The notes beneath the pieces were generated by a model, which searched no databases, was not told where the DNA came from, and saw only the letters and a program-made list of their open reading frames with translations. A program made the translations under genes and the position numbers. This document shows positions 1 through 4,124 of a stretch of 64,000 nt of DNA, piece after piece. How positions within the stretch are numbered: position 1 is the first letter of the stretch; every line of letters begins with the position of its first letter. Where the stretch lies: positions 3,019 through 67,018 of the forward strand of contig CAYFZD010000001.1 of the NCBI GenBank assembly GCA_964347565.1, read 5' to 3'. This DNA is from an uncultured Pseudomonadales bacterium. GTDB taxonomy: Bacteria > Patescibacteriota > Microgenomatia > UBA1400 > UBA12108.

Positions 1-636
1 TACCTGGCCATGCGAGTTACTTTTGCCAATCAGCTCGCTGATCTCTGCGAGAAAAATGGGGCTGACGTCCAAGAAGTCATCAACGGGATTGGGTCTGATT
101 CACGGATTGGTGATCATTACTGGTACCCTGGTCTAGGATACGGAGGTTCGTGTCTCCCCAAAGACGTGAAAGAAATCGCGGCTTACGCCAAAAGTGTTGG
201 TGAAAAAGATAGTATTTTCATCGCTGTTGATGACCACAACGAGATCAGAATTCCTACCCTGATGGAGAAGTACAGCAAGGCAATAGGAGGATTCGACGGC
301 AAAAAAGTGGCAGTATTAGGTCTTTCTTTCAAACGCAACACCAACGACACTCGCGAGGCTCCAGCCAACAAAGTCATACCTTGGCTCAAAGTTCATGGCG
401 CAACCATCATAACCACCGATCCTCAGGTCAAGGCGGATTTTATCGATGCCTATCTAGCCGCTGAGGGAGCTCACGCACTCATGTTACTCATTGAATGGGA
501 CGAGTATCGAGAACTTGATCTTGCTAAACTATCATCCGTCATGGCCTCGCCCAAATATTTCTTCGATACCCGCAATCAATACGACCCCAAATTAGTTGAG
601 TCAGCGGGACTCAAATACCAAGGAGTGGGACGATGA
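1..636 (+). CDS. Nucleotide-sugar dehydrogenase (UDP-glucose 6-dehydrogenase family), 5'-truncated at window edge
   Basis: Frame continues to position 1. Catalytic-Cys motif GGSCLPKDV and the C-terminal UDP-binding domain (GLSFKRNTNDTREAP) are typical of the UDPG/MGDP dehydrogenase family. UXS lies downstream, suggesting UDP-GlcA supply. Confidence 0.8.
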   Translation, partial: YLAMRVTFANQLADLCEKNGADVQEVINGIGSDSRIGDHYWYPGLGYGGSCLPKDVKEIAAYAKSVGEKDSIFIAVDDHNEIRIPTLMEKYSKAIGGFDGKKVAVLGLSFKRNTNDTREAPANKVIPWLKVHGATIITTDPQVKADFIDAYLAAEGAHALMLLIEWDEYRELDLAKLSSVMASPKYFFDTRNQYDPKLVESAGLKYQGVGR

Positions 637-1574
637 AAAAAATTCTCATTACCGGAGCAGGAGGCTTCGTCGGATCCTACCTCATCAAAGAACTGCAATC
701 ACAGGGTAATGCTGAAATCTTCGCGGCCGTCTATAAATCTAATTCCGATTTATCTAACCTGGTCGGAGCTGACCATGTGCTGAGTGGAGATCTGACAGAT
801 CACGAGTTTGCCCAAGTCTTGATCCAGAAAACCCAACCTGACGTGATCTACCACTTGGCTGCCATCTCCGTCGTCCACAATAGTATTGAACAAGCCAAAA
901 ACGTCATCAATATCAACGCGACCTTATCTTACAATCTCCTCGAAGCCATGCGACTGCACGCCCCCAAGGCACGCTTGGTCGCTATTTGCTCTGCCAATGT
1001 CTACGGGGCTGTCCAGGATCAGACCATGCCACTCACTGAGTCCACCCCCTTTCGCCCGCTCAATCCCTATGCTGTCTCCAAAGTTACCCAAGAGATGCTC
1101 GCCCTCCAGTATTACTTGGCTTATGGACTAGACGTTGTGATCCTGCGTCCCTTCAACCACACGGGGCCAGGACAAACCACTGATTTTGTGATCCCCGCGC
1201 TCACCAAGCAATTTATAGATATCGAGAGAGGTGCACAACCTGTTATTGAAGTTGGCAACTTAGATACCACCCGTGACTTTACCGACGTGCGCGACATGGT
1301 CAAGGGCTATGTTTTAGCTAGCGAAAAATGTCTCTCAGGCGCGGTTTACAATCTGGGATCCGGTAGAGGATACAGTGTCAGAGAGATCCTCGAACTCCTC
1401 CAAAAAATCTCAGGGACTAGGGTCGAAATCAAGTCAGATCCTAGTCTCGTCAGAGCTCACGACGTGGAGATCCTCGTCGCTGATGCGAGCAAATTTTACA
1501 CTCTCACAGGCTGGGCTCCCAAGATCTCGCTCGAAACCACAATTTCGGATATACTTAACTATTATAGGAAATAA
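633..1574 (+). CDS. rmd: NAD-dependent epimerase/dehydratase; GDP-4-keto-6-deoxy-D-mannose reductase (Rmd-like)
   Basis: Begins with [10 protein letters not shown] Rossmann motif. Blocks [43 protein letters not shown] and GAVYNLGSG align well with Pseudomonas Rmd as recalled from memory. ATGA overlap with upstream gene; gmd immediately downstream. Confidence 0.65.
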
Positions 1575-1578
1575 TTTT

Positions 1579-2544
1579 ATGGCAAAAAGAGCTCTAATTA
1601 CTGGTATTACTGGTCAAGATGGTTCCTACTTAGCCGAGTTCCTTCTGGCCAAAGGCTACGAAGTATACGGCTTGTCCCGCCGTACCTCCACTACCAACCA
1701 CAATCGGATCTCTGGAATCGTGGACAAAATCCACTTACTCTCAGGCGACTTGCTCGACCAGTACTCACTCTTTGAGGCAGTGAGAGAATCTAAGCCCGAC
1801 GAAATCTACAACCTCGCCGCCCAATCCTTCGTCAAAGCCAGCTGGGATCAACCTGGATACACGGGCGAGTCCACTGCCCTGGGCGTGACCCGAATGTTGG
1901 ATGCTATGCGCATGGCGGGTTCACACGCCAAATTTTACCAAGCAAGTAGTAGTGAGATGTTTGGTAAAGTCCAGGAGACCCCTCAAGTTGAGACCACTCC
2001 TTTTTGGCCTCGTTCTCCCTATGGTGTCGCCAAGGTCTATGGACACTGGATCACTGTCAACTATCGTGAGTCCTACGACCTCTTTGCGGTCTCTGGCATC
2101 CTCTTCAACCACGAGTCACCTCGGCGTGGACTCGAATTTGTCACACGCAAAATTAGCAACACGGTCGCCAAAATTAAGCTCGGCAAAACCGACAAGCTCT
2201 ATCTGGGTAACCCTGAGGCCAAACGTGATTGGGGCTATGCCAAGGATTATGTCGAGATGATGTGGCTCATGCTCCAGCAAGACAAACCCGAGGATTTCGT
2301 GATCGCGACCGGCGAGACTCACTCTGTGCGAGAATTCGTGGAAAAATCATTTGCCGTAGCTGGTGTAGCGGACTGGGAAAATAAAGTCGTCTGGAATGAT
2401 CCTCGCTTCAACCGACCCGCCGAAGTAGATCACTTAATCGGCAATCCAGCCAAAGCCAAAAAACTTTTGGGTTGGGCACCAAAGACTAGTTTCGACGAAC
2501 TCGTGCGTCTCATGGTCGAAGCCGATCTCGAGCTCGAAAAATAG
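1579..2544 (+). CDS. gmd: GDP-mannose 4,6-dehydratase
   Basis: [35 protein letters not shown] is the canonical Gmd N-terminus. RBS AGGA upstream of ATG 1579. The tracked ORF at 1375 is an out-of-context 5' extension overlapping rmd. Confidence 0.9.
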
Positions 2545-2548
2545 TAGT

Positions 2549-3169
2549 ATGTACAAGAAATATCGAACGTCTATATATTTTGTATTAGGATGTCTGACTG
2601 GGATTGGGTTGACTTTATTCGGACCATATGTCAGAAAGCAATTGCTGTCTAATCCTGAAACCAAATTTAATACCTTCCATAGTTCTCGTGCTTCTTTTAG
2701 TTTTCAACATCCCAACGATTTTCCCATTACACCGTTATCTGACCAATCCATATATCAGTTTGCAGACGAAAACTATATCGAATGGATCAATCTAGGCACC
2801 CTTGATTTCACACCAAATGCTCCATCAATGGGGGAAGGATTTCTTATAGTTAAAAGAATCCCCTGTATGATTACGGGAACTTACGAGGAACTTATTTTGC
2901 AAGAATACAAGGACTTAATAGCTGGGTGGAAAAGGATTGATAATAGAGCAGATACAACTCTCCCGATAATTGTAAAAACAAAATTGGGCAACAAAGATGC
3001 CTACAAAATTACAAATAATAATCCAGATACAACTGGAACTTTTGACAATACAAGCTACGAAATTGATACGTTTAGTCCGTGTCTACGATATCGACTCTAT
3101 ATAACACCCAGAGATAAAGAACGTACTAAGCAGATGGAAGAAATCTTAAAAACTTTTAAGTTTGAATAA
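2549..3169 (+). CDS. Hypothetical protein with N-terminal TM anchor
   Basis: 206-aa ORF with one N-terminal hydrophobic helix and no recognisable motifs. Visibly AT-richer than flanking gmd/uxs. Confidence 0.45.
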   Translation: MYKKYRTSIYFVLGCLTGIGLTLFGPYVRKQLLSNPETKFNTFHSSRASFSFQHPNDFPITPLSDQSIYQFADENYIEWINLGTLDFTPNAPSMGEGFLIVKRIPCMITGTYEELILQEYKDLIAGWKRIDNRADTTLPIIVKTKLGNKDAYKITNNNPDTTGTFDNTSYEIDTFSPCLRYRLYITPRDKERTKQMEEILKTFKFE

Positions 3170-3170
3170 T

Positions 3171-4124
3171 ATGTCAAAAATTCTAATCACTGGTGGTGCC
3201 GGCTTCATTGGTAATCATCTGTGTGATCGCTTTCTAGCGGAAGGTCACGAAGTCATCTGTGTCGACAATTTCCTCTCCGGTTCTTCCGAGAATATCAAAC
3301 ATCTTGAGGGCAATCCCAATTTTACCTTGATCGAGCACGATGTTTGCCAGCCACTCACACAAAATCCGACTGGCTTAGACGCTATTTTCCATTTTGCCTG
3401 TCCAGCCTCCCCCAACCCTGCTAGTCCTGTGTCTTATCTCAACTTTCCGATAGAGACGCTGATGGTCACCACCCTGGGTTCTCAGCGGATGCTCGAGCTG
3501 GCTCACCAGAATCGTTGCCAAATAATCTTTGCTTCCACTAGCGAAGTCTATGGTGATCCTGCTGTGCACCCCCAGCCAGAGACTTACTGGGGACACGTCA
3601 ACCCCAACGGCCCTCGCTCTTGTTACGACGAAGGCAAAAGGGCCATGGAAGCCCTCGCCTTTGCCTACCATCGCCTGGGTCAAGCCCAGATCAAAGTCAT
3701 CCGCATCTTTAACACCTATGGCCCCAAGATGAGACTAGATGATGGTAGATTCACCATCAACTTGATCGATTGTTATCTGCACAACAAAGCCCTACCGATG
3801 TACGGGGATGGCTCTGCTACCCGTTCATTTTGCTACATCGACGATTTAGTTGAGGGGATCATGAAGATTTATCAGAGTGAAAAAGCCGTCGGCGAGGTTA
3901 TCAACCTCGGTAATCCTACAGAACTCACGATCACACAAGCAATCGAAATATTTGAAAATATTACTGGTAAAAAATTGTCCAAGGAGATGCGTGCGACCCT
4001 CACCGATGATCCTAAACGTCGCTGTCCAGACATTGGGAAAGCGAAAAAACTCCTAGATTGGGAACCAATGATAGATTTTGCGACTGGTATCAAGAAAACA
4101 CTCGAATCATACCAACATGCTTAA
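3171..4124 (+). CDS. uxs: UDP-glucuronate decarboxylase (UDP-xylose synthase)
   Basis: ILITGGAGFIGNHL plus the block YGDPAVHPQPETYWGHVNPNGPRSCYDEGKR, which is diagnostic for UXS/ArnA-decarboxylase type SDRs. ATG at 3171; the tracked ORF starts at TTG 3162. Confidence 0.85.
   Translation: MSKILITGGAGFIGNHLCDRFLAEGHEVICVDNFLSGSSENIKHLEGNPNFTLIEHDVCQPLTQNPTGLDAIFHFACPASPNPASPVSYLNFPIETLMVTTLGSQRMLELAHQNRCQIIFASTSEVYGDPAVHPQPETYWGHVNPNGPRSCYDEGKRAMEALAFAYHRLGQAQIKVIRIFNTYGPKMRLDDGRFTINLIDCYLHNKALPMYGDGSATRSFCYIDDLVEGIMKIYQSEKAVGEVINLGNPTELTITQAIEIFENITGKKLSKEMRATLTDDPKRRCPDIGKAKKLLDWEPMIDFATGIKKTLESYQHA

Follow-up and report, generated by a model that had tools for sequence, protein, structure and literature searches.

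The window analysed here is a stretch of 64,000 nucleotides from an uncultivated Microgenomates-group bacterium (GenBank assembly GCA_964347565.1, contig CAYFZD010000001.1), and its first 4124 nucleotides hold a set of genes for the synthesis of activated sugars. As the initial annotation had claimed, a gene of the UDP-glucose dehydrogenase family (ugd), an Rmd-like gene, gmd and uxs are all present, and in the open reading frame (ORF) listing of window 1-4124 the four are intact and on the plus strand. The 3' part of ugd occupies positions 1-636 and supplies the last 211 of its 422 codons; the first 632 nt of the gene lie upstream of the window, and this 5' part was taken from the source contig (ENA ERZ27247837 k141_119302, 134,480 bp), which was identified through an exact match of the 633-1574 protein and for which the window position equals the contig position minus 3252. 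The ugd stop overlaps the start of the Rmd-like gene in an ATGA at 633-636. This second gene (633-1574, plus strand) encodes a 313-aa extended short-chain dehydrogenase/reductase (SDR), an Rmd-like NADP(H)-type 4-ketoreductase that is a candidate GDP-4-keto-6-deoxy-D-mannose reductase, and gmd, for GDP-mannose 4,6-dehydratase (1579-2544, plus strand), starts 5 nt past its stop. An orphan ORF of 206 aa (2549-3169, plus strand), whose N-terminal segment is hydrophobic and which is presumably membrane-anchored, was passed over in the initial annotation; it separates gmd from uxs, the gene for UDP-glucuronate decarboxylase or UDP-xylose synthase (UXS; 3171-4124, plus strand). For uxs, position 3171 is the start called on the source contig, and an alternative TTG start lies at 3162, giving a protein of 317-320 aa. 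The series ends with a gene for a DPMS-like polyprenyl-phosphate glycosyltransferase (4117-5292, plus strand), in which a GT2 domain (PF00535) is joined to a GtrA/DPMS transmembrane domain (PF04138). From ugd through this GT2:GtrA gene, positions 1-5292 are an unbroken run of plus-strand genes separated by -8 to +5 nt.

Very probably, the genes of 1-4124 form the front of a co-transcribed sugar-activation operon of the Microgenomates group (Patescibacteria, or candidate phyla radiation, CPR), with UDP-glucuronate (UDP-GlcA), UDP-xylose (UDP-Xyl) and a GDP-6-deoxyhexose as its predicted products. The material for this reading is family membership, motifs, and gene order together with its conservation, all of which were observed directly, and from these we infer the substrates, products and stereochemistry of the pathway. 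The E-values given below leave no room for chance matches in any of the four genes.

Pfam and NCBIfam scans covered 59 tiling window ORFs of at least 110 aa each. The window part of ugd contains the central and UDP-binding domains of the UDP-glucose/GDP-mannose dehydrogenase family (PF00984, 9.6e-26; PF03720, 1.6e-23), and the full 422-aa protein passes the family model TIGR03026 with 400.9 bits against a cut-off of 189.8. The catalytic-cysteine motif is present as GGSCLPKD. Furthermore, the top solved relatives of Ugd are all UDP-glucose dehydrogenases (4a7p, 6e-99), compared with 1.9e-57 for the solved GDP-mannose dehydrogenase (AlgD) and 6e-44 for UDP-ManNAcA dehydrogenase. Against the equivalog models, Ugd scores 396 for TuaD, with a cut-off of 700, and 304 for AglM, with a cut-off of 670.

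The product of uxs aligns with human UXS1 over its whole length (1.8e-92, 313 bits, 47% identity), compared with 139 bits for the UDP-GlcA 4-epimerase 6zl6, 132 bits for GalE and about 81 bits for ArnA (about 1e-22, with 30% identity to the ArnA decarboxylase domain). A neighbour-joining tree joins it to UXS1 as its sister and leaves ArnA outside this pair. The motifs VDNF, STSEVYG, CYDEGKR and DDPKRRCPD all align to UXS1, and the protein keeps its counterparts of the catalytic residues of UXS1 (Thr, Glu, Tyr, Lys and the C-terminal Arg, which we take to be T118, E120, Y147, K151 and R277), as well as the NAD+-anchoring Asp of VDNF. However, ArnA has most of the same catalytic residues, and motifs alone do not separate UXS from ArnA. 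The enzyme is therefore assigned as UXS on its overall similarity, its stand-alone architecture, which is that of an SDR without a formyltransferase domain, and the lack of ArnB- or ArnD-type partners. The comparison with ArnA-type decarboxylases that the initial annotation had called for thus favours UXS, and the family scores of Ugd together with the UXS1 match support its proposal that the two enzymes would provide UDP-GlcA and UDP-Xyl.

Gmd scores 459.1 bits against TIGR01472, above the equivalog cut-off of 415, and it is matched by eleven solved GDP-mannose 4,6-dehydratases (GMDs) with E-values from 7.5e-122 to 7e-108. Catalysis by GMDs uses a Ser/Thr-x-Glu and a Tyr-x3-Lys motif, and an Arg-Arg pair after the second beta strand serves NADP binding. 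The segments SSSEMFG, PYGVAK and LSRRTS of the window protein align with the corresponding motifs of the E. coli and Aquifex GMDs, and they supply the full set of Ser-x-Glu, Tyr-x3-Lys and, after beta2, Arg-Arg (SRR).

The product of 633-1574 matches PF16363 with an E-value of 2.1e-71, and among solved structures it is matched best by the two characterised Rmds, namely those of Aneurinibacillus thermoaerophilus (2pk3; 1.9e-62, 214.6 bits, full length) and Pseudomonas aeruginosa (6x3b; 1.4e-45, 159.2 bits). Among the solved structures, GMD reaches 115.6 bits and the GalE-type epimerases at most 104.7 bits, and GDP-fucose synthase (Fcl) is not among the chains that match at 1e-20 or better; against the NCBIfam Fcl model the protein scores 78 bits, with a cut-off of 500. 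Sequence identity follows the same order, with 37.7% and 34.7% to the Rmds, about 30% to the Gmds, 25.2% to GalE and 23.6% to Fcl. A neighbour-joining tree of 19 sequences, none of them a Tld, was calculated from BLOSUM62 distances over 306 trimmed columns with 200 bootstraps, the references being E. coli K-12 Gmd, Fcl, GalE, RfbB, RfbD and ArnA, plus sequences from PDB alignments. The window protein and five CPR homologs group with both Rmds at 90% bootstrap, and the clade of Rmd and Gmd is found at 97%, with GalE, Fcl, RfbB (RmlB), RfbD (RmlD), UXS and ArnA outside it. The placement with GalE or Fcl that, according to the initial annotation, would have spoken against its reading was therefore not obtained, and the protein sides with the Rmds. 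Together with the Gmd score above its cut-off and the Rmd bit scores, this clustering supports the proposal that gmd and the Rmd-like reductase would lead to a GDP-6-deoxyhexose.

The motifs of 633-1574 include GAGGFVG, the catalytic Ser in CSANVYG and the Tyr-x3-Lys in PYAVSK. At the position of the catalytic Glu of GMD the protein has Asn, and it is therefore not a 4,6-dehydratase. The end of beta2 reads Tyr-Lys, compared with Asp-Asn in the NAD+-retaining GalE, UXS and ArnA and Ser-Arg in Gmd and Rmd, a pattern more in keeping with a reductase that consumes NADP(H) than with an epimerase. In Rmd-like orthologs that adjoin gmd, the position of the catalytic Glu is occupied by Asn, Glu or Asp, and in the two proven Rmds by Glu or Asp. 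The exchange of Glu for Asn was considered as a marker of the whole Rmd clade and was rejected, since the position varies among the gmd-adjacent orthologs. The Asn of 633-1574 shows that the Glu is dispensable; it is not diagnostic.

The conservation of the gene order was examined in 83 related loci, comprising three long contigs and 80 loci from species-representative genomes, which were screened with the window proteins under best-query assignment. The Rmd-like protein shares 59-74% identity with its best 120 database homologs; those that carry a taxon label, at 61-67% identity, are assigned to Woesebacteria, Roizmanbacteria or Microgenomates, and the closest ones (68-74%) are without a taxon label, while one match at 66% (L011) is labelled 'uncultured Pseudomonadales'. 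The Rmd-like gene adjoins a true gmd in 33 of the 83 loci, 27 have the order Ugd-Rmd-Gmd, and the full order Ugd-Rmd-Gmd-UXS-DPMS-like GT2:GtrA is found in 23. In 21 of these 23 all genes are co-directional, and in the other two gmd is inverted and more divergent. A GT-C gene homologous to 7132-8646 lies downstream of the DPMS-like gene in 21 loci. Contig ends truncate three more loci that are otherwise consistent with the full order, and one locus has no UXS. Six loci, all with Chloroflexota-type labels, have Rmd-Gmd alone. The labels of the operon loci (among them L006-L008, L012, L014, L015, L024, L026, L038, L039, L043, L044, L048, L052, L055, L057, L061, L065, L072, L075 and L080) are Woesebacteria, Levybacteria/Levyibacteriota, Patescibacteria group and Saccharimonadales, with a few 'uncultured Gammaproteobacteria'. 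The four genes of 1-4124 are thus the head of a conserved Patescibacteria operon, and because the gmd neighbour is conserved, the assignment of 633-1574 to GDP-sugar metabolism is a strong one.

Several further observations were made on these loci. The labels 'uncultured Gammaproteobacteria' and 'Pseudomonadales' on operon-bearing metagenome-assembled genomes (MAGs; L039, L043, L044, L047, L052, L072, and also L011) look doubtful, and a 1.6-Mb 'chromosome', OZ246394.1, is among the MAGs so labelled. More distant Rmd-like homologs, at 42-46% identity, occur in MAGs of Eisenbacteria, Fibrobacterota, Actinomycetota and others and have the GMD-like motifs SSEEYG and NHTGPRRG. They have no gmd neighbour and are followed by a second Rmd-like paralog and ugd (L028, L031, L035, L041, L077, L082, L083 and others); at L035 10001-13205 a DegT aminotransferase also lies beside the Rmd-like pair and ugd. 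The SSEEYG/NHTGPRRG homolog and its paralog may represent an undescribed short dehydratase/reductase pair.

Upstream of ugd the source contig carries two small genes, a 103-aa ORF and a NUDIX hydrolase. A NUDIX gene also precedes the operon in a Woesebacteria-like subset of the loci, most of which have the 103-aa ORF too. A role of the NUDIX gene as a Gmm-type GDP-mannose hydrolase was considered and is unsupported, as it has weak MutT-type NCBIfam matches only, and with E. coli Gmm the Nudix box alone is in common (26 bits). In the promoter and terminator scan, terminator-like sites across the operon do not exceed what shuffled sequence would give, and the promoter-like sites are weak; apart from a possible promoter upstream of the 103-aa gene, the scan was uninformative. 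The 206-aa ORF at 2549-3169 was likewise considered as a part of the module. It has no Pfam or NCBIfam match and no homolog across the 83 related loci, and the insert that one locus (L007) carries between rmd and gmd is unrelated to it. The ORF was therefore rejected as a module part and is a lineage-specific insertion outside the pathway.

A number of points weigh against the proposed pathway. The NCBIfam matches of 633-1574 (LegB, RmlB, GalE, gmd and others) are all far below their cut-offs and no Rmd-specific model is matched; because the libraries searched hold no curated Rmd equivalog, the assignment rests on the nearest characterised relatives, at 38% identity. Similarly, UXS is below every NCBIfam cut-off that it matched, the libraries searched hold no curated UXS equivalog, and its assignment comes from the nearest characterised relative at 47% identity. 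Public annotation merges the names, with Rmd genes called 'GDP-6-deoxy-D-talose 4-dehydrogenase' or 'GDP-mannose 4,6-dehydratase', and Tld (GDP-6-deoxy-D-talose synthase) is absent from the comparison set, which consequently does not separate the stereochemistry at C4. Furthermore, ugd is translationally coupled to the Rmd-like gene, and in other phyla Rmd-like homologs adjoin ugd without gmd, so that members of the family need not all use GDP-sugars. The mixed motifs and neighbours of the homologs at 42-46% identity show in the same way that the wider family is functionally mixed, and 38% identity is no proof of function. Finally, manB/manC and galU, which would serve precursor supply, are not in the window, and the pairing of individual glycosyltransferases with individual sugars is entirely inferred.

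Three other readings have to be weighed. The one that survives best, although it is unlikely, is that 633-1574 is a Tld-type enzyme with GDP-6-deoxy-D-talose as its product. The two activities lie within the same SDR neighbourhood, annotation pipelines swap their names, and 633-1574 is only 35-38% identical to the proven Rmds, the Woesebacteria-type clade having Asn where the two proven enzymes have Glu or Asp. Yet the only characterised relatives compared are Rmds, 633-1574 groups there, and the comparison gave no positive evidence for Tld.

It is very improbable that 633-1574 acts together with Ugd on a substrate derived from UDP-glucuronate, for example as a 4-epimerase or a UDP-4-keto-pentose reductase, and not on a GDP-sugar. 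The overlap of the ugd stop with its start would agree with such a role, as would the adjacency of Ugd and Rmd-like genes in phyla without a nearby gmd and the similarity of its SANVYG to the GalE motif SATVYG. However, the NAD+-anchoring Asp of GalE, UXS and ArnA is missing from the protein, and a Lys takes the place of the Arg with which Gmd and Rmd bind NADP. GalE-type proteins also fall more than 100 bits short of the Rmd score, and a bona fide gmd lies immediately downstream in every Patescibacteria-type locus seen. An action of the Gmd/Rmd-like pair on GDP-D-glycero-D-manno-heptose, as in DmhA/DmhB-like synthesis of a 6-deoxyheptose, is already disfavoured and has next to no probability, because although 633-1574 has the GDP-heptose 4,6-dehydratase 7us5 as a solved relative (118 bits), this enzyme is not among the solved relatives of Gmd down to 1e-30, the window Gmd is above the gmd equivalog cut-off with only true GMDs as solved relatives at 1e-108 or better, and GmhA, HddA and GmhB were not seen among the 59 window ORFs, in which the sole nucleotidyltransferase is RfbF-like.

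The preferred pathway would have two branches. In the first, Ugd would oxidise UDP-glucose to UDP-glucuronate, and the stand-alone UXS would decarboxylate UDP-glucuronate to UDP-xylose through a tightly bound NAD+. In the second, Gmd would dehydrate GDP-mannose to GDP-4-keto-6-deoxy-D-mannose, the 4-keto group of which would then be reduced with NADP(H) by the Rmd-like SDR. The resulting GDP-6-deoxyhexose is most likely GDP-D-rhamnose, with GDP-6-deoxy-D-talose as the alternative.

The gene that follows uxs suggests where these sugars may go. By far the best solved relative of the protein from 4117-5292 is the dolichyl-phosphate-mannose (Dol-P-Man) synthase of Pyrococcus furiosus (PfDPMS; 5mlz, 2.2e-49), compared with 1.6e-11 for ArnC. 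In PfDPMS, Asp39 reads the guanine and Lys178 contacts O4 and O6 of the mannose (PMC5526996). Asp39, Gly68/Leu69, Asp89, Asp91, His94, Arg117, Arg131, Ser135, Arg202 and Lys208 are invariant in 4117-5292 and 24 orthologs. Gln93 of the DADLQH segment is kept in 4117-5292, but in just 19 of 25 orthologs including the window protein. At the position of Lys178, the window protein has Thr and its closest relatives have Gln or Asn, whereas Levybacteria-type orthologs have Lys; this position adjoins an insertion, and the alignment there is uncertain. The loss of Lys178 is a hint that the donor may be other than GDP-mannose. It was not relied on as an indicator of a 6-deoxy donor, since Thr, Gln, Asn and Lys all occur there and the alignment is uncertain. 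Taken together, the comparison points to an enzyme that would load a GDP-hexose donor, either GDP-mannose or GDP-D-rhamnose, onto polyprenyl phosphate, and 4117-5292 is the likely first consumer of a GDP-sugar in the operon.

Further downstream, 6425-7135 (plus strand) encodes a second small GT2, an ArnC/GtrB-like candidate polyprenyl-phosphate sugar synthase (PF00535, 1.1e-29), for which ArnC is the best solved relative (9.5e-18) and ArnC and PgfS are the best NCBIfam matches. It is followed by GT-C enzymes of the PMT_2 and MptA_B types, the first of them a PMT_2/ArnT-like membrane glycosyltransferase (PF13231) at 7132-8646 (plus strand, with the start as called on the source contig). The layout of these genes resembles that of three-component or Arn-like extracytoplasmic glycosylation systems. 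At least part of the sugars would then be transferred onto polyprenyl phosphate, flipped, and added extracytoplasmically to a cell-surface acceptor. This route is likely because the next gene of the operon encodes a DPMS-type GT2:GtrA enzyme with the guanine-reading Asp retained, and an ArnC-like GT2 and GT-C enzymes come after it.

A more specific version of this proposal, to which we attach a small but real chance, is that the product of the operon is a lipid-linked donor of a 6-deoxyhexose or a pentose, such as polyprenyl-phosphate-D-rhamnose, made from GDP-D-rhamnose by the DPMS-like enzyme, or polyprenyl-phosphate-xylose, made by the ArnC-like GT2. The GT-C enzymes would then draw on it for the decoration of the cell surface, on the outer side of the membrane. 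To our knowledge, neither polyprenyl-phosphate-D-rhamnose nor polyprenyl-phosphate-xylose has been described as a donor in bacteria. If the proposal were true, such lipid-linked donors would define a lineage-wide CPR surface glycan, possibly one relevant to host attachment.

The known systems closest to the GDP-sugar branch are the Gmd and Rmd of P. aeruginosa, which serve the common polysaccharide antigen, and of A. thermoaerophilus L420-91T, which serve an S-layer glycan. The window likewise has an adjacent gmd and Rmd-like SDR, and the Ser/Tyr/Lys triad and the FNHxGPGQ segment of these Rmds are common to 633-1574. The differences are the identity of only 35-38%, the Asn where both Rmds have Glu or Asp, and the gene order, in which rmd precedes gmd and lies, with it, between ugd and uxs, with manC/wbpW not adjacent. 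The P. aeruginosa locus presumably also has a Wzm/Wzt ABC exporter and methyltransferases, as does the window. In a monoderm-type CPR host, the acceptor presumably cannot be lipopolysaccharide.

On the UDP-sugar side, human UXS1 and the bacterial Uxs enzymes of Sinorhizobium and Bacteroides provide the counterpart, the window UXS also being a stand-alone SDR paired with Ugd, although, compared with UXS1, it has five extra residues (PASPN...) past the fourth beta strand. The Arn pathway (Ugd, ArnA, ArnB, ArnC, ArnE/F, ArnT) has the same logic, in which a pentose nucleotide derived from UDP-GlcA stands beside a GT2 polyprenyl-phosphate transferase and a GT-C enzyme. In contrast to Arn, however, the window decarboxylase is of the UXS type, no formyltransferase, ArnB-type aminotransferase or ArnD is adjacent, and lipid A is not expected in the lineage. 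Finally, 4117-5292 has the two-domain architecture of the type III PfDPMS (5mlz) and is followed by GT-C genes, which recalls the actinobacterial polyprenyl-P-mannose/GT-C and the GtrA/GtrB/GtrC systems. Unlike PfDPMS, it is bacterial and lies inside a 6-deoxyhexose/pentose operon, and its donor may not be GDP-mannose.

Each of these enzymes is a new member of a well-known family, and the Ugd/UXS and Gmd/Rmd pairs are textbook ones; the added point is the conserved CPR operon. A very strict survey confined the GDP-D-rhamnose route to Pseudomonas and Aneurinibacillus (bioRxiv 10.1101/854612), and the Patescibacteria literature that was found mentions dTDP-L-rhamnose alone. Since Rmd-like/Gmd pairs are common in MAGs of Patescibacteria and Chloroflexota, their wide occurrence in CPR is a modest extension of these reports. 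At the level of annotation, the results indicate the activated sugars that an uncultivated Microgenomates-group bacterium is probably able to make. That genomes of about 1 Mb have a conserved six-gene sugar operon, here at the head of a glycan region of more than 60 kb, shows a heavy investment in surface glycans, and it is at the cell surface that these epibionts come into contact with their hosts. In an uncultivated organism a direct test of the predicted composition is difficult, but the enzymes could be tested after heterologous expression.

The remainder of the window holds many more genes of glycan synthesis, with about 25 glycosyltransferases in all, at least nine of them of the GT-C type, and two export routes. 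The density of GT-C-type enzymes is unusually high in 7066-37574, where PMT_2 proteins lie at 7132, 10523, 18693 and 29713 and an MptA_B-like protein at 9370; further ones are a PTPS_related protein at 12026, another at 32014 that is fused to a methyltransferase, a GT87 protein at 23821 and a GT2-PIG-V fusion at 27858. A Wzx-type flippase is encoded at 14806-16284 and a putative Wzm/Wzt ABC exporter at 37597-39538, consisting of an ABC-2 permease (37597-38364) and an ABC ATPase (38786-39538). Between the permease and the ATPase lies a gene for a protein of the 23S rRNA intervening-sequence family (38398-38784; PF05635, 5e-36).

The genes for ManNAc, dideoxyhexose and pyruvyl modification on which the initial annotation had also drawn, together with a C-methyltransferase gene, all lie in 39.5-57 kb, that is, 36-52 kb downstream of 1-4124. 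Of these, wecB and rfbH are present as cited, with scores above the cut-offs. The former (47966-49033, plus strand) encodes a non-hydrolysing UDP-GlcNAc 2-epimerase, which would yield UDP-ManNAc (TIGR00236, 391.4 bits against 210; PF02350, 1.3e-108), and the latter (55581-56906, plus strand) an E1 dehydrase (NF011936, 621 bits against 423). This RfbH keeps the His-for-Lys change and the Fe-S Cys motif, with FYPAHQIT and RDCYCDPGKDNTC retained. A role of this DegT gene as ColD, which would make GDP-colitose from the Gmd product, was considered and rejected, as the protein scores 494 bits with Yersinia E1 (3bcx) and 172 bits with ColD. For the rfbG-like gene of the CDP-glucose 4,6-dehydratase family (53805-54776, minus strand) and the rfbF-like gene of the glucose-1-phosphate cytidylyltransferase family (54761-55537, minus strand), the best NCBIfam matches are to the right families, but with scores under the cut-offs (TIGR02622, 201.7 against 278.45; TIGR02623, 276.5 against 300.25). 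Moreover, the 59 window ORFs contain no ferredoxin or FNR-type Pfam domain that would mark an E3/RfbI-type Fe-S flavoprotein, which may lie elsewhere in the genome, and no terminal 4-reductase of the CDP-3,6-dideoxyhexose pathway was identified in the window. The claim of a CDP-3,6-dideoxyhexose set consequently holds for the genes of the early steps, two of them below their cut-offs, while the later ones are not found in the window; a dideoxyhexose product is plausible from the genes that are there. Near rfbFGH, 59278-61164 (minus strand) encodes a 628-aa protein in which an extended SDR is fused to a GFO/IDH/MocA oxidoreductase.

Genes for the methyl and pyruvyl decorations that had been predicted are present as well. 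A CsaB-like polysaccharide pyruvyl transferase is encoded at 39507-40541 (minus strand; PF04230, 78.9 bits against 25.3; TIGR03609, 71.8 bits, below the cut-off), and the window has four to five methyltransferases. One of them, however, is of the TylCIII-type NDP-hexose C-methyltransferase kind (42519-43703, minus strand), with Zn-finger, SAM and C-terminal domains (PF08421, PF13489 and PF08484, the last at 143.7 bits). Its domains suggest a branched-chain (C-methyl) deoxysugar, which goes beyond simple O-methyl decoration and is not captured by the predicted 'methyl decoration'.

Near position 39500 the GC content changes from 0.45-0.51 to 0.39-0.45 and strand usage from uniformly plus to mixed, and the block beyond may be a variable or acquired glycan cassette. 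The initial annotation had joined xylose, D-rhamnose, ManNAc and a dideoxyhexose in one encoded glycan. This is not supported, given the separate lower-GC block, the two exporters and the GT-C enzymes. Several glycoconjugates rather than one are more likely, because the window has a Wzx-type flippase, a separate Wzm/Wzt exporter and at least nine GT-C transferases, and the genes in 39.5-57 kb probably serve glycoconjugates other than those supplied by the operon. Outside the window, a 7.4-kb Logan contig carries a RhuM-like gene and a gene for a CDP-glycerol glycerophosphotransferase downstream.

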